Shown here: positions 29,383-47,679 of the stretch, piece after piece
How positions within the stretch are numbered: the stretch's first letter is position 1
How the letters are laid out: each line of letters starts with the position of its first letter
IMG/VR virus record: IMGVR_UViG_3300031949_000051
Coordinates: 1-53,795 of that record
Strand: one strand, 5' to 3'
Length of the DNA: 53,795 nucleotides
Source: a virus
Taxonomy: Duplodnaviria; Caudoviricetes
Position numbers and translations under genes: made by a program
The notes under the pieces: generated by a model
The model's database searches: none
What the model saw: only the letters and a program-made list of their open reading frames with translations
Told to the model about the DNA's origin: nothing

Positions 29383-29415
29383 GATCAGTAGATATCTACT
29401 GATCCAGTAGAGATC
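29383..29415. repeat. GATC-rich palindromic element (copy A)
   Basis: Perfect 22-bp palindrome GATCAGTAGATATCTACTGATC (29383-29404) plus CAGTAGAGATC. Confidence 0.85.
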
Positions 29416-29420
29416 ATCCA

Positions 29421-30788
29421 ATGGCAAACGGCGAAGACACTGGCGCTCAGGTCGGGCAGATCCTCCTCCAGGCGCTGACCCAGGCGGCGAACCTCCGCCG
29501 CGACGCGCAGCAGTTTGCCGAGCAGATGGGAGCGCAGGCACGGCGCGACAGGGCGAACATCTACTCGGATCTCTTCAACCGGGGGCTGATCGACCGGGAT
29601 GTGTTTACAAAGGAGATGGGCCTCCCGGTGAGCGCAGTGCCGGAGGAGGCGCCGGCAGTAGCGGGCGAGAAAGCACGCACCGCCAGTCTCCAAGCAGGGA
29701 CGCAACGCGAGATCCTCGGCACTCAGCAGGATGTCGAGGAGAAGAACGAACTCACTCCGGAGCAGAAGCAGCAGCTCCAGAAGGCGCTTGCAGCGGGAGA
29801 TACCGCAACTGCTCTGAAGATCGCAGCCGCAGCGCCCCCCGCAAGCAAGCTCGCCCGGCTGCGCGACGAGCTGAACCGCAACTCAATGGAGACGACCGGG
29901 CAGCCGGTGGATGAGCGGGTGTTCCAAGGGGCGGTGGCTGCCGAGTATGGCTTTGAGACCGACCCGCAGATAGCCAAGGAAGCCGCTGAGTTCAAGAAGG
30001 CGAGCCGCGATCTCGGGATGCGGAAGCTGCAAGCAGAGGTAAGCGAAGCGGAGATGTCGCTTGAGAAGCTCAAGAAGGGGGACGACCTCACTTCCTTCCA
30101 GCGCGGGCAGCTCTTGCTTGAGCTGGGCGACGAGAAGCGCACCGCCAAGCGCGACGAACGCTACCAGCAGTTGCAGCGCAATGTCGCCGACCGCAAGGAG
30201 CTGGATGATCTCAAGCGCAAGGAGAGTGCTGCTGAGAAAGCAGGTGGCAAGGAGTTGACGAACGCACAGGAGAAGCGGCTGGCGGATCTCGAAGTGCGGG
30301 AGAAGAGCCCGCTTAATCCCCTCCCCGATGCGGTTTCACTCGCCGAGGAGAAGTCGGCACTCGACGATCTCTTCGAGTACGACGAACAGATCCGCAAGCT
30401 GGTGCTGGGCGGCGTGGAACCCACCAAGGGAGCCGAGGAAGGCGACGAGGATCTCGTTGACGAAGCATTTACCGAGCCCGGCGCGTCGGCCGAGGAGTTC
30501 GACGCCGATGTGGTGATCGGGCGCATCCTCAGCGGGGAGCAGGAGCCGACGGACGAGATCGTGAGCCAGCTTGCCGCGGATCTCCAAGTGAGCGAAGCTG
30601 CCATCCGTCAGAAGATCACCAAGGAGCGCAGCGTTGGGCTCAAGCGGGAAGCAGGCGCTGAGCAGGCCCGCGGGCAGGAGAGCGTCCGCAAGCGCGCCAA
30701 CCGCAAGCGGCGTCTCGGCCTCTCGCTTACGCCCGAGGAACAAGAAATCATCGACCAGCAAGTGAAGCGCGCCCGCCACCCGCGCTGA
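29421..30788 (+). CDS. Internal virion/ejection protein
   Basis: 455 aa, charged coiled-coil; follows pilot gene. Confidence 0.7.
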   Translation: MANGEDTGAQVGQILLQALTQAANLRRDAQQFAEQMGAQARRDRANIYSDLFNRGLIDRDVFTKEMGLPVSAVPEEAPAVAGEKARTASLQAGTQREILGTQQDVEEKNELTPEQKQQLQKALAAGDTATALKIAAAAPPASKLARLRDELNRNSMETTGQPVDERVFQGAVAAEYGFETDPQIAKEAAEFKKASRDLGMRKLQAEVSEAEMSLEKLKKGDDLTSFQRGQLLLELGDEKRTAKRDERYQQLQRNVADRKELDDLKRKESAAEKAGGKELTNAQEKRLADLEVREKSPLNPLPDAVSLAEEKSALDDLFEYDEQIRKLVLGGVEPTKGAEEGDEDLVDEAFTEPGASAEEFDADVVIGRILSGEQEPTDEIVSQLAADLQVSEAAIRQKITKERSVGLKREAGAEQARGQESVRKRANRKRRLGLSLTPEEQEIIDQQVKRARHPR

Positions 30789-33276: not shown

Positions 33277-33340
33277 ATGCGATCCCGCAGATCAGTAGTT
33301 ATCTACTGGATCAGTGATCATCTACTGATCCCCGGAGCAT
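33277..33340. repeat. GATC-rich palindromic element (copy B, tandem)
   Basis: GATCAGTAGTTATCTACTGGATCAGTGATCATCTACTGATC (33290-33330); CTGATG on both flanks. Confidence 0.8.
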
Positions 33341-36506: not shown

Positions 36507-37610
36507 CTACGCTTCCGGTGCGGCTGCATCGAACTCCTCGGAGGTGACTGCTTCGTCGGCGCTGGCCGCACCCTGGGAGCTGGCCGGCGCCACCAACCGC
36601 TTCCAAAGTGTTCCCTTGCCTTCCTTGCGCTGGGCGACTGCACCATCCTGCCCCAGAAGCTCCAGCCCCCGCAGCAGAGTGCTCCTGCCGTACGTCCCTG
36701 CTGCAATCCCCGGGAGTGTGTTCATCAGCTCCGTTGTGCTCATCTCGCCATCCCTCGGCAGCGCCGCCAATACCTCTTCCTTCGCCTTCGCCACTTTACC
36801 CTGCCGCTCCAGTGGAATGATATCCACTTTGACCGCGCCGTGTTCATCGACGTTGCGGATGCGAAAGTTGAGCGGCTCCGGGCGATCAGCATCCTCAATC
36901 CAGCGTGTCTTGTCGAGGTAGACGGTGGGCTTGCCGGCGCGGCGTTCGATGTAGAGGAGGCAATCGGCGGCGTTGCGGATCTCGGTCCCGCCGCGGGTCG
37001 CCCGCGCTGCGTTGCGGGCGTCTTTGCGTTTGGTGGCGCTCTCTTCGCTCTCCTTGTTGGTGTGATGGATGAGAATGACGGTGACGCCGAACTGGTTGCA
37101 GAGAGGGCGGAGAACGTGGCGCATGAGCATCGCCATCTCGGCGTTGTTCTCTTCACCGCGTCCATGGAAAGCGCGGAAGGCGTCAAGGATCAGCACCTGC
37201 GGCCGGTGCCGGGCGAGCGCCATGTTGAGTCTGGCACGCCCTTCGTGTTCGTCGATCCGGAAGCCGACACCGCTGTAGATGGCAACCTTGCCGCCCAGCG
37301 ACTCGAAAGTGGTCTCACGCCCGGCCGCAAGCGCGGTCAGCCGCCGGGTGATCTGCGGGATGGAAGAGTCTTCGTCGATGTACAGCACGGTGCGCGCTCC
37401 GGCAGGCTGCCGCCCTAAAACGTCCTTCCCTTGAGCGAGGCCGATGGTCATGTCGAGCGCAAGGAAACTCTTGCCGCTGCCTCCGTCGGCAACGACGACA
37501 ACGAGGTCGCCTTCAGCAATGTATGGTTCGGCGATCCACTTCGGCTCGGGGATGCCGTCGCGCTCGATGGCGGCAAGGTCGAGCGGGGGAGGGAGATGAT
37601 AGTCAGTCAT
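36507..37610 (-). CDS. RepA/SF4-type (AAA_25-like) replicative helicase with C-terminal wHTH
   Basis: Walker A ADGGSGKS, LYIDED, LILD, ILIHHTNK, RGG. Confidence 0.88.
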   Translation of the reverse strand: MTDYHLPPPLDLAAIERDGIPEPKWIAEPYIAEGDLVVVVADGGSGKSFLALDMTIGLAQGKDVLGRQPAGARTVLYIDEDSSIPQITRRLTALAAGRETTFESLGGKVAIYSGVGFRIDEHEGRARLNMALARHRPQVLILDAFRAFHGRGEENNAEMAMLMRHVLRPLCNQFGVTVILIHHTNKESEESATKRKDARNAARATRGGTEIRNAADCLLYIERRAGKPTVYLDKTRWIEDADRPEPLNFRIRNVDEHGAVKVDIIPLERQGKVAKAKEEVLAALPRDGEMSTTELMNTLPGIAAGTYGRSTLLRGLELLGQDGAVAQRKEGKGTLWKRLVAPASSQGAASADEAVTSEEFDAAAPEA

Positions 37611-37618
37611 TGTGCAAT

Positions 37619-37653
37619 GATCCAACTACTGATCTATACCGCTGCTTGCGATC
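37619..37653. repeat. GATC-rich element (copy C, half site)
   Basis: 37624-37635 reverse-complements to AGATCAGTAGTT, identical to 33289-33300; three GATC. Confidence 0.6.
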
Positions 37654-37813
37654 ATCTCTCGTACCCGAACGTGACTGTCAACGTGATGCACAATGCGGAG
37701 AGCCAGTAGCACATGTCGGCGTACTTTCCATGCCATCCCCACCACGCTGCATTCAGCAGATAGAGACCCATGATTACAAAGTTGAACACGCGGGGGTCGA
37801 AGAAGGCGATCAT
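37652..37813 (-). CDS. Small two-TM membrane protein
   Basis: FNFVIMGLYLLNAAWW...YWLSALCITLTVTF. Confidence 0.6.
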   Translation of the reverse strand: MIAFFDPRVFNFVIMGLYLLNAAWWGWHGKYADMCYWLSALCITLTVTFGYER

Positions 37814-38019
37814 CCGGCCGGCTGTTCGCAACGTGAGCACCACGACTTGCTCAGGATGCTGCCGCAGTCGAGGCAACGCCACTGGACGGGGACGATGCGG
37901 TCGATGCGACGGGGGAGGCACATCTCGTCCATCCACTCAACGATACTCTTCTCGCGCTCCAACTTGCCAACAACGGCATCCTCCCGGCCCACAACGATGC
38001 TCTCCCGGTCGTCGCTCAC
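37810..38019 (-). CDS. Zn-ribbon hypothetical protein
   Basis: GTGA overlap; CLDC...CSRC. Confidence 0.55.
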   Translation of the reverse strand: MSDDRESIVVGREDAVVGKLEREKSIVEWMDEMCLPRRIDRIVPVQWRCLDCGSILSKSWCSRCEQPAG

Positions 38020-38939
38020 GCTGCCACCTCGATCACTTCCCCCTCCCCCCAGCTCTTCCCCACCTTGAACTCCACCGGGCACCAAAATCCGTTCGGATAA
38101 AACTTGTCCCAGATCATCTGCGGCCACTTGCGTTCCATCAACCGCTTGAGCAGGCGCGCTGTCGGCAGCGCCTCCTGCGGCTCCACCTCCAGCACAAAGT
38201 TGTCGTGCTGGTACGTGTAAAGCGGCGGCTCCGGCAGCTCTGCATCCGCAAGCACCCTCCTGAACATCCCGCCCCCCGTGCTCTGCGCAGGCTGCGCCAG
38301 CGCCTTGTTTCGATCCGGCCACTTCTCGTACTGCGGCTCGCCGTGCTTATCCTTCGGCACCATCGCCCAGAAGTAGCGCCGCCTCCCGAACGGGTTGATG
38401 AGGAAGCGTTGCCTTGACGCCAGCTCCGCGGTTTCAAGCTGCCAGCGTGCAATCGCCGGCCAGCGGTTGAGGTACGCTCTCACCATCTGCTTGCAGTATT
38501 CCACACTCCACCCGTATTGTAGCGCCATTTTGTTCTCTTGCATCCCATACCCGAGCGCCAGCTCCGCCCGCTTGGTCGCCTGCCGGCACGTCTCCAGCCC
38601 CCCTTGGAACTCCACTTTGAACGCCTTGGCGTTCTCCTTCGTGGGATTAGCGAACAAGTTGGCGAGCAGCGCCCGCGCCTCCACTTCCTGGCACCCATTC
38701 CATTGCGCCACCTTCCACGGCTCGGTGGCACGGTAGAGCGCGGCCGCCGTGTGTGCGTACAGATCCCCCCCGCTCAACACGATCTCCATCCGCTCGCTGT
38801 CTCGCGCGAAGAAGGCGGTGAGCGCTGCCTCCATCTGGCTCCAGTCGGCCTGGAGCAGCACGTTGCCGGCCACTCGTGGAATCCACAGGTGGCGCAACTC
38901 CTCGGGGACCGTCTACTGCGCGTTGAACGATCTGCTCAA
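38016..38939 (-). CDS. polA: DNA polymerase A, C-terminal part (motifs A/B/C), in-frame TAG at 38915-38913
   Basis: DWSQME, RQATKRAELALGYG, NPFGRRR, AQSTGG, YQHDN; N-terminus reads MSRSFNAQ*TVPEELR from TTG 38939. Confidence 0.88.
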
Positions 38940-39364
38940 CGCGACTGCCCCCCCCTCTCTGGGTGGTACTTGCCCCCACGCCAGCGAGAAGAATATTTGT
39001 AGTAGTAAGCTTTGTGGATAGCGTATGCACACATTCTACAGCGGCGTCGGCCGTGCTTCAGAATCCACAAATTGTGGCCAACGAGAGAATGCCCGCGTTG
39101 GCAGTGCGTGCGTCCCCCGCCAAACCGATGGCCATGTATCTCTACAGCAAAGTGATCCTTTGGTGAGACGAGTTGCAGATGTCGAATGCTTATACAAGCA
39201 CGATTTCGGCAAATGTGGTGAATGTGCCACCCCGGGGGGATAGCGCCATTGGAAGACTCCCACACCGCGCGATGCGCCAGCAATCGGCGACCTGCCATTG
39301 TGCACCGTTTGTATCCTGCCGCGTTAGGAACGCCGCCACCTACGATACAATTATTGAACGCCAT
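38936..39364 (-). CDS. HNH homing endonuclease
   Basis: GY...AHRAVW...GAIP..WHIHHICRNRAC...HL, then HCQRGH...CRMC; lower GC. Confidence 0.88.
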   Translation of the reverse strand: MAFNNCIVGGGVPNAAGYKRCTMAGRRLLAHRAVWESSNGAIPPGWHIHHICRNRACISIRHLQLVSPKDHFAVEIHGHRFGGGRTHCQRGHSLVGHNLWILKHGRRRCRMCAYAIHKAYYYKYSSRWRGGKYHPERGGQSR

Positions 39365-39370
39365 ATATGT

Positions 39371-39379
39371 ATTGTATCA
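39371..39379 (-). promoter_or_regulatory. Extended -10 promoter for HNH (leaderless)
   Basis: TGATACAAT followed by 6 nt and ATG 39364. Confidence 0.55.
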
Positions 39380-39392
39380 TACTTCGGCTTGC

Positions 39393-39653
39393 TCACGCAG
39401 CAACGTCTTCCATCGCCACTTTCACCAGCCTCGCCGTTGCCGACTGCACCTGCATCGCCGTTACCACCTGCTCCAGCGTCATCCGGTGATCATACATCCG
39501 CCGGAGGATCGCCTTCATATCCTGGTAGCAGGTGTCGCAAACGATCTCGCTTGTTGCAGCGGATGGTGTGACCTTCCGCAACTTGCCGAAGATCGCCTCT
39601 CCGCACGCCCCGCACACGAGCGGCTTGGTGCTGTGCTTAATGTGTGTTGCCAT
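39393..39653 (-). CDS. Zn-finger hypothetical protein
   Basis: GGAGG RBS; CGAC...CDTC. Confidence 0.65.
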   Translation of the reverse strand: MATHIKHSTKPLVCGACGEAIFGKLRKVTPSAATSEIVCDTCYQDMKAILRRMYDHRMTLEQVVTAMQVQSATARLVKVAMEDVAA

Positions 39654-39801
39654 CGGTGTCCTCCAGCCATTTGATATTGCATAGCACTAGCGTTTGCCCA
39701 TCCCGAGCGTGCAGGTGCGTTACCTTGTTCACTCGCTCAACGCTGATGTGCTTGCACGGCACCTCGAATGCACACTTGCTGCAAATGATGGTTGCTTTCA
39801 C
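39637..39801 (-). CDS. Small hypothetical protein
   Basis: GAGGAGGGAG RBS, GTG start; CSKC. Confidence 0.5.
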   Translation of the reverse strand: MKATIICSKCAFEVPCKHISVERVNKVTHLHARDGQTLVLCNIKWLEDTDGNTH

Positions 39802-40021
39802 TTGTCCACTCCCTCCTCTTCTTCCGCATCCTGTTGCGATCACAAGTCAAACAAATGTGTTGATCGACTCGAAACACGTACCGGTGGGGAGAGTGCCCGC
39901 GCTTACAGCGATCTCTAATCTGGCCATGCAACCAAAGGAAGTGTTGCCCATTGACACCACGCTGCGCATATCCATTGGTGATGGATCGCGTCCAAATCCA
40001 ACACAAGTTTGCTGGCATCAT
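39737..40021 (-). pseudogene. Degenerate HNH endonuclease (catalytic core missing)
   Basis: Keeps N-terminal CWIWT..I.NGY and C-terminal CKRGH...CLTC but lacks the HxCRNRAC core of the two paralogs. Confidence 0.6.
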
Positions 40022-42009
40022 TTTCCTTCGCCCTCCTCTCCCCCCGACGAAAGACGCCCAGTCGACGTTCTGTGACAATTATACGGCGGGTGCGCCAACC
40101 CCATCGCGTCGAGGATCGTCCGCTTGCGATCCGTCGTGGTAATCGGGATCACGTAGCCGGTCAGGTGCTTCTGCACCTTGGCGATCCTCAGCCTCAGCCT
40201 CACCCCCTCGTCCCCCGTTTCGTTGAGCATGATCCGCAGCACGTCGTCGTCTACACTCTGCGCCCCGCCTTTCGTGCGCATCCGCACCTTGTACCCCTTG
40301 ATCTCGTAGATCCACCAGCGCCAGTGGGCATCCGAAGTCGGAGAGAATCCTCTCTCCAGCACCCGGAGGCGAGCAAGTTGCTTAGTGCGTGCTGCGCAGA
40401 GATCGCCTGACTTTCGACGGGCAGTATCGGGAACTGAAGCAAAGATCCCGGCGCAAACGCTGCATTTTGCAGCGCGTGGAGGACGGATTCCATCGTACGA
40501 GGGGTGTTTAGCGCAGCGTTCAGGTTCTGGAGCCTCCAATTCGCGTATCTCTCCCTCGAAACCTGCAACGACGGCGCGCTGGGGTTCCACTCTTCGAGCC
40601 GCCCACTCCTCAGCAACCAACGCCCGAGCCTCTGCCGCATACCCATTGAGTTCCTCCCGCAGCTTCGCTTCGACCGTCCGCGCAGCCGCTCTGTCCGCCC
40701 TCATCCCCGCCCGTTCAGCGTACCACAGTCGCGGCAACGCAGCCATCGTCACATTCAACTCGTCCATCAGCCCCGCCGCCTCCAGCTTCGGCAGCAGAAT
40801 CTTCTTCAACGCCTTGGTGCTCACGATGTCGAACCAGTTGTAAAGATGCCACCACGAGTTGAACCCTTCCGGCAGTCCGAGTATCCGCCCAATCACCCGC
40901 TGCAACGCCGGGCTGTCCGGGAGTCCCTTCCACTGAAAGTAGTACGCTGCGTACCTGCTCATGCACTCATCAAGCGCCGCCGGCAAGTCGGGCTCATCGA
41001 GGTTGGCGGCAACGATGGTGTCGAAGAACGGTGGTGCGACGATCACCCCGTTCCCTGCCGATGCTTTGAGATCGTACAAAATGTTGTGCCCCACCTTGAG
41101 CGCCGGGCCTTCGAGTACCCGCCGCACCGGATCGATCCACGCCGGATACCAGGGGATCTCGTACACCGGCCCGTCGTCCACCTCCAGCCCCAGCAGGAAC
41201 ATCTGCTGCGGGTTGCGCCTTGCCGTCTCCACGTCGAACACGACTTCGTGCCCGCGCAATGCCGCAACCTCGTCCATCCGCGGAGACTCCACCATCCGCG
41301 GCTCCATTGGCCACCGCCCCCGCTCCGGCGGCTTGCGGAGAATCCTCCGTATATCCTCCGCAAACACCGGTCGCTGCTCCCACTGCCCCCGGATGATGTG
41401 CGCAGGGTGGAGAGCTGAAATCACCCACGGGTCGCCCGGCCACGAGAGCGCCGGCACGCTCACTCCAGGGATTAACTGGACTCTCCCTCCGGGATTCGCC
41501 GCAGCGATCTCGCTCTGTCGCCAGAGACTCCCTCTCCAGTTTGTGATAGACGGCGGACACGGCCTCCCTTTGTTGTCCGTGTCAAGCGCATCGCCAACGT
41601 ATCGCCAAAGTGCTTTGCCTCCAAGCATGAGGAGTCGCGGAGGACCTGGATTACCTGATGCAGCAACCTCGGCTTCGAGATATTGAGAGCAATGTCTGAT
41701 GGCCCGCGCCCAGAGATCACGGTTACGCTCCTCTCCACGCCCCTTCTCACTCCCCCACTCTTTCGGCGGCTTGCATTTGATGACGTTGGCGGTATACCAA
41801 TCGTCATGTCGAGATCCCACTTGGCGGAACGCTTTTTCATTCTCCACTCCCGCTGCCCCGACGAACGGGCGGCTGACGACAATCTCATCCTTCCCCGGTG
41901 CCTCCCCCAGGCGCCACTGCTTGCGCGGATCACCGCACCCCGGCACGAACCCCTTGCCAATCTCAGCAAGGGGGCATCCAATGCAGCCGCTTGGCTTGCG
42001 CGGGTCCAT
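40018..42009 (-). CDS. polA: DNA polymerase A, N-terminal part: family-4 UDG + 3'-5' exonuclease + thumb/palm start
   Basis: CIGCPL, GEAPG, RPFVGAAG, NVIKC, HPAHIIR; VFDVET, GHNILYD, YNWFD; ends TSTGRLSSGGEEGEGK. Confidence 0.9.
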   Translation of the reverse strand: MDPRKPSGCIGCPLAEIGKGFVPGCGDPRKQWRLGEAPGKDEIVVSRPFVGAAGVENEKAFRQVGSRHDDWYTANVIKCKPPKEWGSEKGRGEERNRDLWARAIRHCSQYLEAEVAASGNPGPPRLLMLGGKALWRYVGDALDTDNKGRPCPPSITNWRGSLWRQSEIAAANPGGRVQLIPGVSVPALSWPGDPWVISALHPAHIIRGQWEQRPVFAEDIRRILRKPPERGRWPMEPRMVESPRMDEVAALRGHEVVFDVETARRNPQQMFLLGLEVDDGPVYEIPWYPAWIDPVRRVLEGPALKVGHNILYDLKASAGNGVIVAPPFFDTIVAANLDEPDLPAALDECMSRYAAYYFQWKGLPDSPALQRVIGRILGLPEGFNSWWHLYNWFDIVSTKALKKILLPKLEAAGLMDELNVTMAALPRLWYAERAGMRADRAAARTVEAKLREELNGYAAEARALVAEEWAARRVEPQRAVVAGFEGEIRELEAPEPERCAKHPSYDGIRPPRAAKCSVCAGIFASVPDTARRKSGDLCAARTKQLARLRVLERGFSPTSDAHWRWWIYEIKGYKVRMRTKGGAQSVDDDVLRIMLNETGDEGVRLRLRIAKVQKHLTGYVIPITTTDRKRTILDAMGLAHPPYNCHRTSTGRLSSGGEEGEGK

Positions 42010-42932
42010 CAGCTTGCGATGGAAGCCCCGCTGAACGGTCGGTACTCGCTCGCTGCCCGCATCCCCGCCTGATGTGCGGCCAGCACCTGTTGCCCTCCTC
42101 CCAAGGCGCTGCACACCACGTTGACATCACAGTACATCTGGCACTTCTGCCCGCCCAGCATCGGCAACCCGGCAAGTGGCAGCTCCTTGACCACTTCAGC
42201 CGGCGGCCTCCCTTCCTCGATCTCCTTGAACCCCCGCTTGAGCATCTCGACAATCTCGCGCACGGTGAAGCCTGCTCCGCCGGGCTTGTAGCTCAGCAGC
42301 TCCTCGACTCCCATGAACCGCACCGGCTTTTTGATCCACTCGCTTCCGTACTTCTGCCGGTCCCGCCCGCTCAGCGGCGCCGTGTACCAGATGTGCCCGA
42401 ACTCCGGCCGCTTGCCGAAGTTGAGTTCGAGCATGTTGGCGTAGAATCCCCCCACCTGTGCGCTGTCGTCGTCACGAGCCTCGTGGCTCTTGACGATGAA
42501 GCTGAGCGCCCCGGCGTTGGTGATCTTGTAATCGACAATGTAGTCGCCGTCACTCGACCAGTTGTCCACCTGTGCGCTCATCTTCCCGATGCCGGGGAAT
42601 TCGATGTCGCTGAGCTGGACCTCGGTGCGGAACCCGTACTTCCCTCCCGCTTGCGCCATGACCTTGTGCCACACCGATCCCCTGAAGCGCACGTCCGCTC
42701 CATGGGGGAGGGCGTAGTAGTCCATGAACCGCTTGATGATTGTCTCGCGTGGGCAGGCGAGGCAGGTGGTGGGCGTCAAGGTGGAGCCGACGTGGAAGCG
42801 GTCGCCTTTGATCCCGTCAAGGATCATCGCCGCCCACACGGGGGGAAACGGGGGGTCAGGGCACTCCCCCATGAAGTGATCGAGCCCCACCTGCTTCGCT
42901 TCCTCCGGGCAGATCCAACCGATAAGTCCCAT
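42009..42932 (-). CDS. Cas4-like PD-(D/E)XK exonuclease
   Basis: ACPR, RGSVWH, QVD...VDYK, Q...Y, C-terminal CQMYCDVNVVC Cys cluster. Confidence 0.8.
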   Translation of the reverse strand: MGLIGWICPEEAKQVGLDHFMGECPDPPFPPVWAAMILDGIKGDRFHVGSTLTPTTCLACPRETIIKRFMDYYALPHGADVRFRGSVWHKVMAQAGGKYGFRTEVQLSDIEFPGIGKMSAQVDNWSSDGDYIVDYKITNAGALSFIVKSHEARDDDSAQVGGFYANMLELNFGKRPEFGHIWYTAPLSGRDRQKYGSEWIKKPVRFMGVEELLSYKPGGAGFTVREIVEMLKRGFKEIEEGRPPAEVVKELPLAGLPMLGGQKCQMYCDVNVVCSALGGGQQVLAAHQAGMRAASEYRPFSGASIAS

Positions 42933-42936
42933 GTTT

Positions 42937-43428
42937 TCACTCCTTTACGATAGACTTCTGTTTCCGAGTCACCTTCGGTGCCATTGGCTGCAACCAGTGG
43001 ATTGGCCGCCAGATGACCACCATGCTCGGGAACCGCGGGCTCCCCGCCGGCTTCCCGTCAATCTCGAACCGCACCCTTCCTCTGATCAGGCGCACCTCTG
43101 CGTTGCTTAGCTTGCAGCAGGTGTGAAACCACCGCTGATCCGTGAACACCGGGGCGATCATCACAACGAGGGCGGCAGTGTAGAACGACGCCTTGCCCGC
43201 CCATGCTGCGATCTCGTTGTACGGCGGGTTGACAAACACCCGCTCGCCCAGCCACGACTGCGCCAACCCATCCTCCGCCTCCGTCCAGAACCGCGGCAGC
43301 TTGGTGTTTGCGGCCGTTGCTGCTGCATCCACTGTGAACTTGAACTCGTCGTTGAGCTGGTCGAACAGCCACTTGGGTGTCTCCCACTCTTGCGACCGCT
43401 CCGTTGCTGCGTTCATGCCGCTATTCAT
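42937..43428 (-). CDS. dam: Phage DNA N6-adenine methyltransferase (Dam-like)
   Basis: WETP..LF..L..EF.F.VDAAA, DGL.QSW, FVNPPY, GRVRF, FPSM. Confidence 0.88.
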   Translation of the reverse strand: MNSGMNAATERSQEWETPKWLFDQLNDEFKFTVDAAATAANTKLPRFWTEAEDGLAQSWLGERVFVNPPYNEIAAWAGKASFYTAALVVMIAPVFTDQRWFHTCCKLSNAEVRLIRGRVRFEIDGKPAGSPRFPSMVVIWRPIHWLQPMAPKVTRKQKSIVKE

Positions 43429-43603
43429 CGAACTCGAACCTCTCGTCGATTTCAAGCATGATGTAATTGAGTTGCGTGTCGAAGATGTGCTCTTCGCTGG
43501 CCGGCTTCCCGTGCTTGTGCGCCTTCATGTAGCCACAGCGAAGTCCCACCTCGATAGCATCTTGGAGCAACCGATATGTGCGTGGCTTGGCGCCAAACTT
43601 CAT
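43421..43603 (-). CDS. Hypothetical protein
   Basis: ATGA overlap; AIEVG..CGY.KAHKH. Confidence 0.6.
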   Translation of the reverse strand: MKFGAKPRTYRLLQDAIEVGLRCGYMKAHKHGKPASEEHIFDTQLNYIMLEIDERFEFDE

Positions 43604-44196
43604 GGCAATCCCCCGCCAAAGTAGTCTGCCACCAGCACCGGCTCCCTCATCGTCCCGAGCCGCCAGTTGTGGATGATCTTCCCCGTCCGCCCATTGCCAT
43701 CCTCGAACGGATGGATCGTCTCGAATGTCACGTATGCCTTGTCGGGCTCCATCGCCTCCTGATCCCCCTCCCACTCCTCCATCAGCCGAGGCACGTCCTG
43801 CCAATCGGGGCAAGCGCGTGCACCCACCCTCACACCGCACGTTCGCCACCCCTCGCGGTTCGTCTCCGGCTCCACCATCCGCCCCCACAGCTTCACCGTC
43901 TCGGTATCAAGCGGCCCCTGGAAGGTGATCGCGTGGTTCCATGCCGCCATCATCGCACCGACACGGAACCAGAAGTCGGATGAGCCGAGCTTCCATCCTT
44001 GCCGCACAACTTCGTCCATGATGAACTTGCGAATGCTCATTTTCATTACGCCTCCAAATCCATCGCACTTCGGGCAGTCCGCCCACATATGCAGCAGCTT
44101 CGTCCCACACTCCCGGCACTGCGCCCCCTGCCGCTGATCCGAGTACCCGAGCATGGTGCCGTCGGGGGACCAGATTGGGTAGCGGCTCACGGACAC
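43600..44196 (-). CDS. Fic/Doc-family protein (optional N-terminal Zn ribbon; alternative start 44040)
   Basis: FETIHPFEDGNGRTGK; CREC...CPKC upstream in frame. Confidence 0.85.
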   Translation of the reverse strand: MSVSRYPIWSPDGTMLGYSDQRQGAQCRECGTKLLHMWADCPKCDGFGGVMKMSIRKFIMDEVVRQGWKLGSSDFWFRVGAMMAAWNHAITFQGPLDTETVKLWGRMVEPETNREGWRTCGVRVGARACPDWQDVPRLMEEWEGDQEAMEPDKAYVTFETIHPFEDGNGRTGKIIHNWRLGTMREPVLVADYFGGGLP

Positions 44197-45144: not shown

Positions 45145-45435
45145 CTACTTCCAACGTTTCTTCTCCACAAGCATACAAAAAAGCGGCGACCGGTTCCCCG
45201 CTTCATCCACCGCCCGCACCCGCATGTACAAACACTGCCCCGGCGCGGGGTCCATCCCCTCGATGGTGAACGTCGTCTCCGTCCCGACCGTGCGCCCGAT
45301 GTCGGCCAGCGGCTCGGGAACGAACGCGGCCTGGATGATGTAGTGGCTCAGGTCGAGCGCCGGGGTGCCGTCGCAGTGAGTCAATGAGGGATCCCAAGCG
45401 ACTTGCGTGCTTAACAATATTAAAAGGTTCAACAT
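45145..45435 (-). CDS. Fibronectin type III-like small exported protein
   Basis: Hydrophobic N-terminus; WDP....DGT..DL..Y.I...Y.RVRAVD.AGN.S. Confidence 0.65.
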   Translation of the reverse strand: MLNLLILLSTQVAWDPSLTHCDGTPALDLSHYIIQAAFVPEPLADIGRTVGTETTFTIEGMDPAPGQCLYMRVRAVDEAGNRSPLFCMLVEKKRWK

Positions 45436-45848
45436 TGTTGCTTTGGGTAACCGAGTAGCCTACGCCTTGCATAGCGGCGCCGCTCATACTCCCGCCTGCA
45501 AAGTCGACATACACGTCCTTGAGTGCGCCCATTGGTTGTGGCAAGCAAAACGTGGGCTCCTGAAGCTGGGTGCCCACAATTGAGCTTGAGTTGATTTGGG
45601 CTCATTTGTATTCGCGGCTCAAGAAACATGTGTGTACGGCGATGAACCGGCCAAAGATGGCCAGGGTTAAAACAAGCGCGGTTTCTGCACCAATGATGAA
45701 GATCCCAATCTTCAGCGACCGGCCCATGAATAGACTCCCACAGCAGCCGGTGAACTTTACGCACTTTTCCTTCCCACCAAACATTGCCGTAGCCTCTGCT
45801 CAAACTCTTTGTCCATGTCCAACACTGTGAATGAGCAGTCGCCGACAT
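45429..45848 (-). CDS. HNH homing endonuclease
   Basis: CWTWT....GYG...VHRLLW..IHGP...LHHWCRNRACFNPGHL, CGH...CRLC; start uncertain. Confidence 0.88.
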   Translation of the reverse strand: MSATAHSQCWTWTKSLSRGYGNVWWEGKVRKVHRLLWESIHGPVAEDWDLHHWCRNRACFNPGHLWPVHRRTHMFLEPRIQMSPNQLKLNCGHPASGAHVLLATTNGRTQGRVCRLCRREYERRRYARRRLLGYPKQQC

Positions 45849-45942
45849 TTCTATTAAACGCATCAGGCTGTGGGGTGCAGCGATCATCGTCAAGGCGGGC
45901 AGCAAGTAGCTCATTTGCTCATAATCCCTTGGTGGGGGATTA

Positions 45943-46194
45943 TCAGGAAGCCTCCTCCCCACTCCTCCCCGGCTTCACCTGCTCGCTGGCGAGGGCGCGA
46001 ATACGCTGACCAGCATTTCTAGCCTCGGGAGAATCCGGGTCATCGACGGGAAACAGGCGGAGGTCATCGCAATACTCGTCAGCAATAACAGCCGCCTCCT
46101 CCAGCCGCTTCTCCAGCTCCGAACAGTTCGGGCACCTCTCCGTCCGGCGCGTCTCCGGCTGCGGCTTCCCGTCAGGCTGGCGATCAGCGGGCAC
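45943..46194 (-). CDS. Hypothetical protein
   Basis: CPNC; LEEAA..AD...AG.RIRAL pattern. Confidence 0.55.
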   Translation of the reverse strand: MPADRQPDGKPQPETRRTERCPNCSELEKRLEEAAVIADEYCDDLRLFPVDDPDSPEARNAGQRIRALASEQVKPGRSGEEAS

Positions 46195-46439: not shown

Positions 46440-46880
46440 TCACCTCTCCCCGTCCAGCATCCGCTCAAACGCCTCGACGTTCCCTCGCGCATCCTCCACC
46501 GGGTTGTGCGTGTGCTTCGTCACCCGCAGCCGCTTCCACCTCTGTGTCTTCCGGAAGTCTCCGCGCAACCCGGCGTAGAAGTCGCCGATCCTCCTGCCGC
46601 TCCAGCCAAATGGGTTCCTGCCCAGCGTCCGCCAGAAGCCGTCGTTGATCCACTGCCAATCGAACGCCGGGTTGTCGCTGACGAACACGTAGGGGGGCGG
46701 CAGGGTGTGCAGCCACGCCTCGAACGCGGAGAACACATCCGATTCATGCGCCGCAGCATCGGCGCGCAGATCCCCGTAGAACTCCTCGCGCTGATCGTAG
46801 TCAACCGCTCCAAACTCCGTCAGCCTCCCCACAGCGGGGCACGCTCCGCTCGCTTCGCAATCAACGAATATCAGCGACAT
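46440..46880 (-). CDS. DEDDh 3'-5' exo(ribo)nuclease
   Basis: FVDCEASG, SDNPAFDW, HNPVEDA. Confidence 0.85.
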   Translation of the reverse strand: MSLIFVDCEASGACPAVGRLTEFGAVDYDQREEFYGDLRADAAAHESDVFSAFEAWLHTLPPPYVFVSDNPAFDWQWINDGFWRTLGRNPFGWSGRRIGDFYAGLRGDFRKTQRWKRLRVTKHTHNPVEDARGNVEAFERMLDGER

Positions 46881-46896
46881 CACACGCCTCATGGAT

Positions 46897-46929
46897 AAAA
46901 ACGCCCCGGTTTATCGCGCGCTCCGGGGC
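46897..46929 (-). terminator. Terminator-like hairpin at 3' end of RNA candidate
   Basis: GCCCCGG-13 nt-CCGGGGC followed by GTTTTT on - strand. Confidence 0.5.
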
Positions 46930-47298
46930 CACGGCGCATCCTGAGCGCAGTGGCGGGAAGGAGGTACCTCGCCTAGCGCAACGCGATCTCAAAGCCTGGT
47001 GCGCCTCGGCTGATCGCAGCCTCAGAGTCGCTCCGCCTGCCTGGGGGGCGTCGGAGTACCCCACGCAGAGCCACTGGCACGGCACCCGCACCGGGCTTTC
47101 AACGAGCCGCGGGAAAGCCACAGCTCGGTCTCGAAAAGTGCCCCATCCAGCAGGTGAGGTGCTGCGCCCGGGGGCGCCTGCTGGACGGGGGCTTTGTGAG
47201 CGCCGCCCCCGGGCTTCTCGTTGGCGCAACCAGCATTGCCGGAGACTCCCTACACCAGCGGCTCCTGCTGCTTTGCTGCGTTGCGCCCGTGGCTCACC
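46897..47298 (-). ncRNA. Candidate large structured ncRNA (about 400 nt)
   Basis: No credible ORF; multiple 7-14 bp stems, long-range end pairing, pseudoknot, several G-U pairs on the - strand. Confidence 0.55.
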
Positions 47299-47679
47299 CT
47301 ACTCGGTGCGCCACCATGTCTTGTTCACCTGGAGCAACCGCACCGCGGCTGGATTCGTGTCGCGCAGCAGACTGATCGCAACCTGCTCCGCGGTCCTGAG
47401 GCCATCCGGACGGCGTCTCCGTGCGGGGTAGGCTCCGTGGATCACGTAGTCCTCCCCCTTTTTCTCGCGCACGATCACCACTCCGTACGGCTTCCCCGGT
47501 GCCATCGCGATATACCCGGTGTGCGGGCTGCGCGGCTTGGCGGCGAGCTTGCGCAGCTTTGCTCCCACTGCTTCGAGCTTGGTGGCGATGTCGTTCAGCT
47601 CCGCCCCCGAGCCGTTCTTCATCGCGTGCTCCGCCGCCACCAACGTGCCCACGATGTCCATTCCCTTGTCGAGTTCCAT
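47299..47679 (-). CDS. Hypothetical protein
   Basis: GGGAGG RBS; 126 aa. Confidence 0.75.
   Translation of the reverse strand: MELDKGMDIVGTLVAAEHAMKNGSGAELNDIATKLEAVGAKLRKLAAKPRSPHTGYIAMAPGKPYGVVIVREKKGEDYVIHGAYPARRRRPDGLRTAEQVAISLLRDTNPAAVRLLQVNKTWWRTE

Follow-up and report, generated by a model that had tools for sequence, protein, structure and literature searches.

Does a phage with a stop codon inside a conserved motif of its DNA polymerase still make the enzyme, and by which route? The question is raised by the window, the 53,795-nt stretch of phage DNA that we analysed, where the family A polymerase is encoded in two halves and the C-terminal half (C-half) is interrupted by an in-frame TAG. 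An earlier note on this DNA proposed that ribosomes pass the codon by programmed readthrough or by a +3 slide. If ribosomes do pass the UAG, conflict with a homing endonuclease would have given an essential phage gene a natural recoding site. T4 gene 60 would then be the only other arrangement of this kind, and at about 130 nt the present one is small enough for dissection with reporters. If the TAG is merely a lesion, this is an ordinary broken gene in a metagenomic contig. Sequence alone does not settle the choice between readthrough and a broken gene. By elimination, we tentatively favour, at a probability of roughly 0.38, a nuclease-linked insertion in a target site that must be decoded through. 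A null allele ranks second, reinitiation downstream of the TAG third and an artefact behind these.

The split polymerase and its relatives

The locus lies on the minus strand of a soil-phage contig and encodes a family A polymerase with a UDG fusion, split after TGRLSS (Table 1). The N-terminal half (N-half) ends ...HRTSTGRLSSGGEEGEGK-TGA (also given as ...TSTGRLSSGGEEGEGK-TGA), with its stop at 40020-40018. Its start is uncertain, and the database gene call gives 663 aa. Pfam detects the UDG domain (9.6e-11, residues 69-250) and DNA_pol_A_exo1 (2.7e-4, residues 290-388), the latter under the curated cut-off. The UDG-like domain and the exonuclease are on one N-half polypeptide, as expected of a UDG-fused PolA (PMC10201439). 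A six-frame search of the contig with PF00476 returned three pieces, at 40045-40356 (profile positions 27-123, within the N-half), 38727-38906 and 38043-38630, and no other family A polymerase.

After the TAG, the C-half stays open for 298 codons down to 38016. It belongs to family A by its Pfam match (DNA_pol_A, 3.3e-23; 82.7 bits vs a cut-off of 34.3), and its profile (alignment A1) matches the Taq and Klenow structures at 4e-36 to 3e-31, with Taq at 3.6e-36. The family A motifs that we looked for were TGR, A (D..SQ.E), B (R..K....YG) and C (HD), with names and patterns taken in part from PMC10201439. All of them are present: TGRLSS in the N-half, and A as DWSQME, B as RQATKRAELALGYGM and C as HDN in the C-half. 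The HDN variant of motif C also occurs in the relatives P0005 and P0007. In these soil phages the cut falls within the polymerase domain, after the TGR motif and before helix J. This cut stands whatever the TAG proves to be, and it is not among the family A splits in the excerpts of PMC10201439 and PMC12695635, which place them between the exonuclease and polymerase domains.

Table 1. Features of the split polymerase locus (positions in the window)
Feature	Position	Strand	Details
N-terminal polymerase subunit	40018..42114	-	family-4 UDG-like and 3'-5' exonuclease domains, then polymerase sequence as far as the TGR motif
Degenerate HNH-like ORF	39737..40021	-	ATG overlaps N-half stop; reads MMPANLCWIWTRS...CKRGHS...C..C; HNH core missing
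Two small overlapping ORFs, function unassigned	39393..39843	-	68 aa at 39637-39843; Cys-rich, 86 aa at 39393-39653
Intact free-standing HNH endonuclease gene, 142 aa	38936..39364	-	HNH_3 2e-14 (Pfam); PHROG 826 8e-22
Run of eight G	38948..38955	-	purine-rich, Shine-Dalgarno-like; ends 8 nt 5' of TTG 38939
C-subunit start TTG	38937..38939	-	overlaps HNH stop; L001 C-half starts at the equivalent place
In-frame TAG	38913..38915	-	C-subunit codon 9; extra codon between Q and T of FNAQ/TVP
C-terminal polymerase subunit after TAG (palm and fingers)	38016..38912	-	stop TGA 38018-38016
Long irregular hairpin	38904..38952	-	GGGGGC/GUCCCC, GUC/GAC, 9-bp stem GCGUUGAGC/GUUCAACGC
Imperfect hairpin, 16 pairs in three blocks	38862..38898	-	begins 14 nt after TAG; -21.7 kcal/mol
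7-bp hairpin GCUCCAG/CUGGAGC	38838..38856	-	5-nt loop; RNA folding

Of the ORFs between the halves, the one directly upstream of the C-half has the catalytic domain of a free-standing homing endonuclease (HNH_3, PHROG 826). The degenerate HNH-like ORF has no Pfam or PHROG match; it shows a weak BLASTP match across CxRGHS (E 0.048), and it shares two short direct repeats, one of 20 nt at 80% and one of 19 nt at 79%, with the intact HNH gene. The two small ORFs have no family match above the curated cut-off in Pfam or PHROG. Pfam and PHROG scans of the neighbouring ORFs gave mostly no match. In a consensus scan of 37900-42300 we found no promoter-like site and one terminator-like site, on the opposite strand.

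The earlier placement of the C-half start is supported by homology to L001: the frame opens at TTG 38939 with a purine-rich ribosome-binding stretch upstream, and the TTG overlaps the HNH stop, TGA 38938-38936, as TTGA. The G-run at 38955-38948 is also a slippery stretch within the 3' end of the HNH gene. A -1 shift on this run was considered as a route into the C-half and rejected, as it runs into the same TAG; ACG as a start codon was likewise considered and rejected.

The closest relative, L001, is 46% identical and has the same split, without the HNH gene and without the TAG. Its C-half begins MSQPEPFNAQNIPEELR, with the pattern M-S-x-x-x-x-FNAQNIPEELR, and starts GTG-AGC...TTCAACGCGCAG, where the GTG overlaps the stop of the preceding ORF (GTGA). 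The tails of the two N-halves align at 65% (...SGGEEGEGK-stop here vs ...SGGEEETGK-stop in L001). The split is ancestral and older than the HNH insertion: L001 shares both the N-half tail and the C-half start with only a 66-aa ORF between its halves. This ORF has no similarity to the ORFs between the halves here. The HNH gene is therefore present in one genome and absent from the equivalent site of a related one, as seen with the one relative L001. The unsplit relative P0077 reads ...IGRVRSGAERSDIDKATGADFNAQNIP across the break, and in L002, L007 and L014, which are unsplit and more distantly related, the domains follow in the same order.

Our searches reached no relative more than 46% identical in any collection. 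Against phage records, blastn gave no match, and tblastn gave 39 records, all below 60% identity and at 22-26% among the 30 listed. IMG/VR scans with the C-half, P0005, P0006, P0009, the HNH protein and P0013 found no relatives, and those with alignment A2 and P0008 found only unsplit polymerases at 22-26% identity (L002-L008, L014), of which L002, L007 and L014 were inspected for their ORFs. In word-index protein searches, the N-half (residues 300-698) and the C-half each retrieved only themselves and one weak match. One metagenome scan gave a single locus, L001. That the TAG is not seen conserved has to be read with this distance, since the nearest relative in the collections searched is only 46% identical.

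An extra TAG codon in the helix-J motif

From TTG 38939, the frame reads TTG AGC AGA TCG TTC AAC GCG CAG TAG ACG GTC CCC GAG GAG TTG, which translates as M S R S F N A Q * T V P E E L. The helix-J motif NxQ(N/T)xP aligns with Taq D578-P585, and the TAG falls between the equivalents of Taq Q582 and N583. The proposal that FNAQ and TVP are two halves of one motif, with the TAG as an extra codon between them, agrees with the alignments. Opposite the TAG, there is a gap in 9/9 aligned relatives, and also in BLASTP against the unsplit P0077. Among 149 HMMER relatives, none has the expanded form N-x-Q-x-[N/T]-x-P, and 118 have N-x-Q-[N/T]-x. The helix-J motif that follows TGR in family A is here broken by the TAG at 38915-38913, and the alignment of homologous C-halves that the earlier note had suggested shows neither the TAG nor an added codon in any of them. 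The TAG is a lineage-specific added codon, seen in one genome alone. No second helix-J motif occurs in any frame of the contig.

The surroundings of the TAG are well conserved. Codons 4-16, around the TAG, hold the best-conserved 10-codon block shared by this C-half and that of L001, with 83% nucleotide identity where the average for 302 codons is 57.6%; the changes lie in the middle of this block. The FNAQ codons are the same as those of L001 at 12/12 nt. The residues beside the TAG fit the family: T at the N position is also found in P0006 (NPQTIP), V replaces I, and P is invariant. On the other hand, an alternative nucleotide alignment with L001, in which AAC becomes TAG and CGG is inserted, is equally or slightly more parsimonious. 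It looks less like a clean cassette, and we count it against the favoured reading.

TAG was described before as a real stop elsewhere in this genome, and this holds: it ends 8 of the 56 long ORFs, as chosen by a crude longest-ORF pick. The TAG at 38915-38913 is the only one that we saw in frame within a gene with a family match. A scan for other TAG-interrupted genes was noisy in this GC-rich genome and gave one same-frame ORF pair (47299-47679 and 46861-47229), which has no family matches. Automatic gene calling masks the TAG by starting the C-half at GTG 38872, and this masking holds whatever the TAG proves to be.

The RNA around the TAG is predicted to fold into three hairpins. For the first downstream structure, an imperfect hairpin of about 14 bp had been described; the hairpin is found, 14 nt past the TAG and with the fallback TTG inside, but it has 16 pairs and is only marginally unusual (z -2.07; 5/200 shuffles fold as well). 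Both fallback starts, TTG 38897 and GTG 38872, are base-paired in it. The GTG is the database gene-call start, from which the protein P0004 begins MAGNVLL. The second, 7-bp hairpin was recovered at 38856-38838.

We notice a further, larger hairpin that had been overlooked, at 38952-38904, in which the FNAQ/TAG/TVP codons are base-paired with the G-run and the TTG start. Of the TAG bases, the G is part of a stem and the U and A are part of an internal loop. The 131-nt stretch with the long hairpin folds at -62.2 kcal/mol (z -3.58), equalled by 0/200 shuffles, whereas the equivalent 131 nt of L001 are ordinary (z -0.31). The structure over the C-subunit start is specific to this genome in comparison with L001.

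Possible routes to the C-subunit

We read these features as follows. In this phage clade, a family A polymerase with an N-terminal UDG-like fusion is encoded as two subunits, cut in the variable loop between TGR and NxQNxP. A free-standing HNH homing endonuclease gene has since entered the old gap, directly 5' of the C-subunit. In this genome alone, the helix-J codons carry a small cluster of changes, including the 3-nt TAG insertion. We infer that this cluster disrupted the target site of the HNH enzyme, presumably in the helix-J block, and shields the phage's own genome from cleavage. A full C-subunit would then need a non-standard event at a single UAG. One candidate is readthrough by near-cognate tRNA-Gln, which would give NAQ-Q-TVP (peptide SFNAQQTVPEELR) or a product with another residue there; a suppressor tRNA might also read the codon, supplied by the host or encoded in the 31% of the genome that is unassembled. 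In the other candidate, peptidyl-tRNA-Gln would re-pair from CAG onto the UAG, giving NAQTVP (peptide SFNAQTVPEELR). Meanwhile, the long hairpin, which buries the ribosome-binding stretch and the TTG, would couple translation of the C-subunit to that of the HNH gene.

The observed parts of this reading are the split and its ancestry, the presence or absence of the HNH gene, the start position, the extra TAG codon and the RNA structures. We count in its favour the ancestral split, the unique extra codon with its family-compatible flanks, the conserved block, the intact remainder of the gene, the single helix-J motif, the paired fallback starts, the genome-specific start structure and the T4 precedent. 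Against it we count that the TAG is in one genome only and that positive evidence of recoding is lacking. The proposed readthrough or +3 slide did not gain positive support; it survives mainly by elimination and by analogy to T4 mobA/gene 60.

Readthrough meets several obstacles. In programmed readthrough the stop is kept in relatives; here the C-half extension is conserved and the stop is unique to this genome. Stimulators of readthrough typically lie about 8 nt from the stop, and a structure that begins 14 nt past the UAG, as the marginally unusual hairpin at 38898-38862 does, is probably too distant to act with the UAG in the A site. Readthrough of UAG in bacteria is ordinarily low, and a 3' A favours stop suppression. 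Readthrough would also insert a residue where 0/149 relatives have one, which counts against it.

The slide has the feature that a stop, UAG, directly follows CAG, as a stop or hungry codon follows the take-off codon in bypassing. In other respects the site differs from known bypass sites. The candidate take-off and landing codons are unmatched (CAG / UAG / ACG), and we count against the slide that it requires a first-position G-U pair. Only 8 residues are made before the site, and a nascent-peptide signal of the gene-60 type is therefore impossible. There is no take-off stem-loop of the bypass kind: CAG and UAG sit in the 3' arm and internal loop of the long hairpin, and the ribosome would cover its 5' arm or have passed it. 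No relative searched carries the cassette. As a long shot, T4 mobA/gene 60 may have a minimal equivalent here, made up of the HNH gene and the 3-nt TAG: the insert would break the target and leave the protein unchanged, as the slide from CAG to UAG, with decoding resumed at ACG, would give exactly NAQTVP. If true, it would be the first natural in-frame stop hop, and the start hairpin would couple production of the polymerase to translation of the selfish gene. We also considered a long hop, from CAG 38918 to the following CAG in frame (38852-38850), and rejected it; it would lose 21 conserved residues (TVPEELRHLWIPRVAGNVLLQ), including the invariant P12, and remove the strand before motif A.

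The nearest competitor of the decoded insertion, unlikely but to be taken seriously, is a null or strongly hypomorphic allele, in which the TAG truncates the C-subunit after 8 residues with no special decoding. The phage might then be defective, a decaying prophage or one that no longer needs this polymerase. This is the simplest account of an in-frame stop in a single metagenomic contig. The TAG is in no relative, no recoding signal is suitably placed, and the contig has 0 tRNA genes, hence no suppressor tRNA; error-prone repair after self-cleavage by the HNH enzyme could yield such a local cluster of changes. Yet the genotype is the assembled consensus, at a depth of about 15, in two assemblies, and beside the TAG the codon changes are conservative and compatible with the family (T, V, P). 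The 298 codons past the TAG are intact, as are the N-half and the HNH gene, with all catalytic motifs in place; any inactivation must therefore be very recent. The contig looks lytic-type (terminase, portal-like, capsid, helicase/primase), so that a lethal allele is unlikely as the majority genotype. We found no integrase or resolvase within the assembled part and no other family A polymerase on the contig; the contig is about 69% complete, with about 31% of the genome unassembled, and an integrase could therefore be in the missing part.

More doubtful is reinitiation. An 8-codon mini-ORF would end at the UAG and ribosomes would restart at TTG 38897, 18 nt on and after GAGGAG, or at GTG 38872, making a C-subunit that lacks the NxQ..P motif and still works with the N-subunit. 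Restart after short ORFs is ordinary in bacteria, and the optimal Shine-Dalgarno spacing is 5-9 nt. At 0-2 nt, the spacing from GAGGAG to the TTG is too short, and both restart codons are paired in the -21.7 kcal/mol hairpin. Two synonymous differences (GAG GAG TTG here vs GAA GAG CTG in L001) make the Shine-Dalgarno-like hexamer and the start, and TTG is only 11.9% of Leu codons (102/859, in 22 ORFs); GAG, however, is anyway the majority Glu codon, at 77%. The database gene call at GTG 38872 (P0004) agrees with a restart there, and the motif is not fixed family-wide, as in P0007 (FQRAVENWP) and P0060 (NALNIP). Nevertheless, the segment that would be lost is N-terminal in 7/8 of the closest short C-halves and degenerate in P0007. 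It holds the invariant P12 and the nearly invariant Q8, and aligns with the helix-J stretch of Taq. According to an excerpt of PMC10201439 (citing Singh and Modak 2005), helix J binds duplex DNA and acts in the balance between extension and proofreading, which argues against a subunit without it.

An artefact is improbable. The TAG or the length of the G-run would be an assembly or sequencing error, or a variant misrepresented by the consensus. Only one run, probably the source of the contig, holds the sequence, and no RNA dataset is listed among the holders; our view of the run is at contig level and the depth is modest (15.2). The Logan contig from that run (17,159 nt, depth 15.2) agrees with the window over 38300-40300 at contig level, with 0 differences and 0 gaps in 2001 nt, and it is not independent data, as it comes probably from the same source sample. 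A clean 3-nt insertion away from a homopolymer is not a typical short-read error. The codons next to the TAG also differ from L001, and the change is therefore not a single stray k-mer.

Close to refuted is a known device, either an HNH-carrying group I intron or a genome-wide code with TAG as an amino acid. TAG recoding is known in some phages, but here TAG ends long ORFs, there are no tRNA genes, and the terminase, portal-like, capsid, helicase and N-half genes read open in the standard code, so we rejected reassignment, including a pyrrolysine or code-15 reading, on a contig that is 69% complete. HNH-bearing group I introns do interrupt phage family A polymerase genes, as an excerpt of PMC3428280 describes for Pf-WMP3. 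The intron was rejected here: Rfam gave no match at E <= 1 on either strand of 37500-41000, the halves are translated as separate ORFs with stop/start overlaps both here and in the HNH-less L001, and no 5' exon could supply FNAQ, so that a splice would keep the TAG or delete the motif.

Comparison with known systems

Phages hold several arrangements that resemble parts of this locus. SPO1 has an HNH-carrying group I intron in polA, and in some T4-related phages gp43 is split by a homing endonuclease and works as two subunits. In the Pf-WMP3 polA intron, as presented in the excerpt of PMC3428280, an HNH gene likewise interrupts a phage family A polymerase at a conserved motif; the present locus differs in that no intron is detectable and the halves are translated separately. 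The split polymerases of T7-like cyanophages (Czernecki et al. 2023, PMC10201439; PMC12695635) are, in the excerpts of these papers, also encoded by two adjacent genes, with products expected to reassemble and new termini in a surface loop. Unlike those splits, between exonuclease and polymerase, the present one lies between TGR and helix J, in a UDG-fused enzyme.

Aeh1 nrdA with MobE, as summarised in the excerpt of bioRxiv 10.1101/2022.08.31.505936, is a gene split by a homing endonuclease that acts as two subunits. It shares with this locus a free-standing endonuclease gene inside an essential gene, and we list as a further shared feature the association of the two products, each of which retains a short tail at the break; the stop codon that interrupts the downstream half is found here only.

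For the proposed slide, the comparison is with the experimental stop hops in E. coli (Weiss et al. 1987, in Atkins et al. 2016, PMC5009743). There a peptidyl-tRNA skips a stop and the frame is kept; in the hops described, matched codons flank the stop and 9 nt therefore encode one residue. As far as the excerpt of this recoding review goes, no natural in-frame stop hop is known. The slide would resemble them in that a peptidyl-tRNA leaves its codon with a stop in the A site and re-pairs downstream. It would differ in its landing site, which is the stop codon itself, as the ACG after the stop cannot pair with tRNA-Gln.

The closest counterpart is T4 mobA/gene 60, in which, according to the excerpt of Manning and Atkins (bioRxiv 10.1101/2022.08.31.505936), an essential gene is split, an HNH-family endonuclease is present and a highly conserved region carries an insert that is not translated. 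The insert blocks self-cleavage by MobA, and ribosomes bypass it from a take-off codon that precedes a UAG (same excerpt, citing Bonocora et al. 2011). The extra sequence is 3 nt here and 50 in T4, and the present site has no matched take-off and landing pair, no room for a peptide signal and no homologous cassette in relatives. MobA elements create the split in that account, whereas here, as L001 indicates, the split came before the HNH gene. The proteins show no relation to topoisomerase or MobA, as judged by HNH_3 membership alone. Still, within what the excerpt reports of T4, the likeness is extensive: in both, an essential replication enzyme is encoded in two ORFs with added tails and an HNH-family gene in the gap, extra nucleotides interrupt coding sequence that is highly conserved and lies within a few tens of nt of the endonuclease gene, and a UAG directly follows the last decoded codon with RNA structure around the site.

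Organization and ancestry of the split polymerase

The window is the entire record, a linear IMG/VR virus contig of 53,795 bp from a soil metagenome, with a completeness estimate of 69%. Its polymerase is of family A in the UDG-fused form (cf. PMC10201439) and is encoded in two halves on the minus strand. Re-reading that strand returned every coordinate of the earlier note. The frame of the C-half reads M S R S F N A Q, TAG (38915-38913), T V P E E L R H L W I P..., and its TTG overlaps the HNH stop TGA (38938-38936).

Features of the window around the split polymerase and elsewhere
Feature	Position	Strand	Remarks
Packaging and head genes		plus	small and large terminase, head-tail adaptor (portal-like) match, major head protein
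Replication module		minus	DnaB-like helicase/primase, polymerase, DNA methyltransferase
Second HNH_3 gene	45429-45962	minus	Pfam six-frame 7e-10; PHROG 826 5.8e-29
Fic/DOC-domain protein	43600-44196	minus	Pfam 1.1e-9; just upstream of polymerase module
DNA methyltransferase	42937-43455	minus	PHROG 111, 2.7e-42; just upstream of polymerase module
N-half ORF	40018-42114	minus	family-4 UDG-like domain, 3'-5' exonuclease, beginning of polymerase domain; C-terminal end ...HRTSTGRLSSGGEEGEGK-TGA
Degenerate HNH-like ORF	39737-40021	minus	first after N-half; ATG overlaps N-half stop
Two small ORFs		minus	no assigned function; between degenerate HNH-like ORF and intact HNH gene
Intact HNH_3 endonuclease gene	38936-39364	minus	Pfam 2e-14; PHROG 8e-22
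C-half	TTG 38939-38937 to 38016	minus	298 open codons past TAG; DNA_pol_A 3.3e-23

An exhaustive HMMER search with the C-half returned 1976 relatives at E <= 0.001, six of them at E <= 1e-30 including its own gene call. Many top matches are proteins of 270-320 residues that open a few residues ahead of the NxQNxP motif, with N-termini such as MSQPEPFNAQNIPEELR (P0005, the closest relative, 46% identical), MIGQPTFNMQNWP, MLFETAFNSQNIP and MGTRYNAQNIP. P0005 is encoded on L001, a metagenome contig of 1517 bp, in which stop/start overlaps (GTGA) link the N-half frame, a 66-aa ORF and the C-half, and the HNH gene is absent between the polymerase halves. The N-half tails, ...GIGHPPYALRTSIGRVASGGEEETGK-TGA in L001 and ...GLAHPPYNCHRTSTGRLSSGGEEGEGK-TGA in the window, are 65% identical and both end in GK-stop. 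Meanwhile, the unsplit relative P0077 is continuous across the junction (...IGRVRSGAERSDIDKATGADFNAQNIPEDVR), and UDG-fused polymerases at a greater distance have a variable loop at this point too, e.g. TGRLSSCATDNGTGTNLQNIP. Judging from these sequences, the polymerase of this clade is cut in the loop that separates the TGR motif from the following one, and was so before the HNH gene came. The short relatives and the C-half of L001 likewise bear out the proposed start of the C-subunit at TTG 38939, motif included. The database call of the C-half (P0004, 285 aa) begins at GTG 38872 (MAGNVLL...) on the minus strand, so automatic annotation hides the interrupted motif and its amber codon. The 66-aa ORF (L001 79-279) contains Cys, has a GTGA overlap at either end, and does not resemble, by sequence comparison, the small ORFs between the halves in the window.

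The intact HNH gene encodes a free-standing HNH_3-family endonuclease, as judged by its sequence and its presence or absence, with a target site that is putative only. The degenerate ORF retains a CWxW...GY N-terminal stretch and a C..RGHS...C..C tail, lacks the catalytic core, and has imperfect repeats of 19-20 nt in common with the intact gene, which points to a duplication within the gap or to two insertions of an endonuclease there. The second HNH_3 gene shares 33% identity with the first across 97 residues, and its neighbours have no family matches.

The 9-mer CTACTGATC occurs five times in the window against 0.15 expected, a count reached in 0 of 100 shuffles. Four copies form two inverted pairs, at 29383-29404 and 33290-33330, just upstream of genes starting at 29421 and 33345; the fifth (37626-37634) is single, next to where the helicase/primase ORF begins. 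The element may be an operator or promoter.

An additional amber codon in helix J

The sequence is present in one public run, probably the source sample of the contig. An independently built Logan contig from that run (17,159 nt, depth 15.2) matches the window at every position across 38300-40300 and shows neither gaps nor alternative letters. This supports the consensus, yet is not independent evidence, as the run is the probable source and contigs lose rare variants; we regard an artefact as very unlikely. As the earlier note held, TAG is a genuine stop elsewhere in the genome: in a crude pick of 56 long ORFs, TAG terminates 8, TGA 38 and TAA 10.

The earlier note's placement of TAG as one extra codon inside the motif is upheld. 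In an alignment of ten sequences, none of the nine relatives has a residue in its column, and BLASTP against P0077 gaps it likewise (DFNAQ-NIPEDVR versus SFNAQXTVPEELR in the window). N-x-Q-[N/T]-x occurs in 118 of 149 relatives and N-x-Q-x-[N/T]-x-P in none of the 149. In six the P lies one position later; five of these still have N directly after Q, and the sixth match is elsewhere in the protein. The alignment profile maps the motif to D578-P585 of Taq polymerase (full-length chain 1bgx_T), and TAG therefore falls between the positions corresponding to Q582 and N583. We take this segment to be helix J of Klenow-type enzymes, from the E. coli numbering and from the title of a 2005 paper by Singh and Modak that PMC10201439 cites. 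According to PMC10201439, helix J contributes to the binding of duplex DNA and to how extension is balanced against proofreading.

The C-halves of the window and L001 align over 302 codons at a nucleotide identity of 57.6%. Among the 10-codon stretches of this alignment the best, codons 4-16, is the motif itself (83%), inside which TTCAACGCGCAG is identical at 12 of 12 positions. The differences concentrate mid-block, with CAG TAG ACG GTC CCC in the window versus CAG AAC ATC CCC in L001. On the alignment, the block can be read as an inserted TAG with N-to-T and I-to-V changes, or, as MAFFT prefers, as AAC changed to TAG with CGG inserted. T at the N position is also found in another relative, P0006 (NPQTIP). 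No second helix-J-like motif was found in any frame of the contig, and no second family A polymerase in this 69% complete contig.

The short C-half P0007 reads ...SPHFQRAVENWPRDERD where relatives carry TFNMQNWP, degenerate and two residues longer. This protein starts with L, so it may be a fragment. It could represent a further disturbed helix-J region within the clade.

RNA structure and decoding of the amber codon

The hairpin described earlier at 38898-38862 does fold (16 pairs, -21.7 kcal/mol), with a z-score of only -2.07, and the two fallback starts in frame, TTG 38897 and GTG 38872, lie within it. The second, 7-bp hairpin is also present, at 38856-38838. A larger structure, unnoticed before, spans 38952-38904: a G-run pairs with GUCCCC just past the TAG, GUC pairs with GAC including the G of TAG, and a 9-bp stem joins the TTG start region to the F-N-A codons. 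The z-score of the 131-nt stretch is -3.58, with 0 of 200 shuffles as good, versus an ordinary -0.31 for the corresponding stretch of L001. By inspection these pairs would persist without the TAG, so the structure is independent of it. Since it buries the ribosome-binding stretch and the C-subunit start, which only a ribosome completing the HNH gene would open, it implies that the polymerase subunit is translationally coupled to the selfish gene.

An eight-G run (38948-38955, minus strand) lies in the final HNH codons, a few nt upstream of this stable stem. As derived by hand, a -1 shift on it would lead from the HNH frame into the C-half frame (...EGGAVALSRSFNAQ) and end at the same TAG; without the TAG, slippage would yield an HNH-polymerase fusion.

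Our preferred reading, held tentatively at a probability of about 0.38, is an endonuclease-linked insertion that is decoded through. The HNH gene, absent in the relative, would be linked to a change cluster that breaks its putative target in the conserved block, and ribosomes would then pass the UAG by readthrough or a slide. This cluster occupies the middle of the block with the highest conservation, and the HNH stop is 22-24 nt away. For the programmed readthrough or +3 slide proposed earlier, we find no positive indication at the TAG. The downstream hairpin starts 14 nt past the stop; to act on the codon in the A site, a structure has to start some 5-9 nt beyond it. The nascent chain is eight residues when the ribosome meets the stop, and the stop is scored as unconserved because no relative is close enough for comparison. 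The codons on either side are unmatched, whereas the stop hops described so far employ matched ones, and none of the in-frame type is known from nature (PMC5009743). The boldest version, an exact +3 slide, is distinctly improbable.

It is rather unlikely that the TAG simply inactivates the C-subunit as a null or hypomorphic allele. A lytic-type phage should not carry such an allele as its consensus genotype, and the assembled part yielded neither an integrase nor a resolvase. The remainder of the locus is undamaged, with motifs A, B and C all present (HDN of motif C is common to the window, P0005 and P0007). Reinitiation at TTG 38897, giving a subunit without helix J, is mechanistically ordinary; GAGGAG-TTG arises from two synonymous differences versus L001, and TTG makes up only 11.9% of Leu codons. 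However, the spacing from GAGGAG to TTG is near zero, the TTG sits inside the hairpin, and the product would lack the motif that seven of the eight closest short C-halves keep N-terminally, invariant proline included (it is degenerate in P0007). We consider this reading unlikely. An intron or an altered code is hardly credible: a group I intron was rejected, with no Rfam match at E <= 1, as was TAG reassignment, given the long ORFs that TAG ends, ARAGORN's failure to find tRNA genes in a contig with ~31% of the genome missing, genes with family matches that stay open under the standard code, and no sign of an altered code in the assembled part.

Comparison with known systems

The T4 mobA/gene 60 cassette shows that a homing endonuclease can be accompanied by an insert that is left untranslated and disrupts the enzyme's own target within highly conserved coding sequence; ribosomes handle the insert at a take-off codon with UAG next (bioRxiv 10.1101/2022.08.31.505936). 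By analogy, the difference in HNH presence and the central change cluster would fit this logic in miniature. Gene-60-type bypass differs in its defining features, as the window's site has no matched codons, no peptide signal and no conservation; programmed readthrough differs in conservation of the stop, and the hairpin spacing here is 14 nt. Despite these differences, the site may work like one or the other.

A narrow literature search found no description of a split between the TGR motif and helix J. In T7-like cyanophages, the polymerase is split at the exonuclease/polymerase boundary (PMC10201439, PMC12695635), whereas the cut in the window falls within the polymerase domain itself, past the TGR motif and ahead of helix J.
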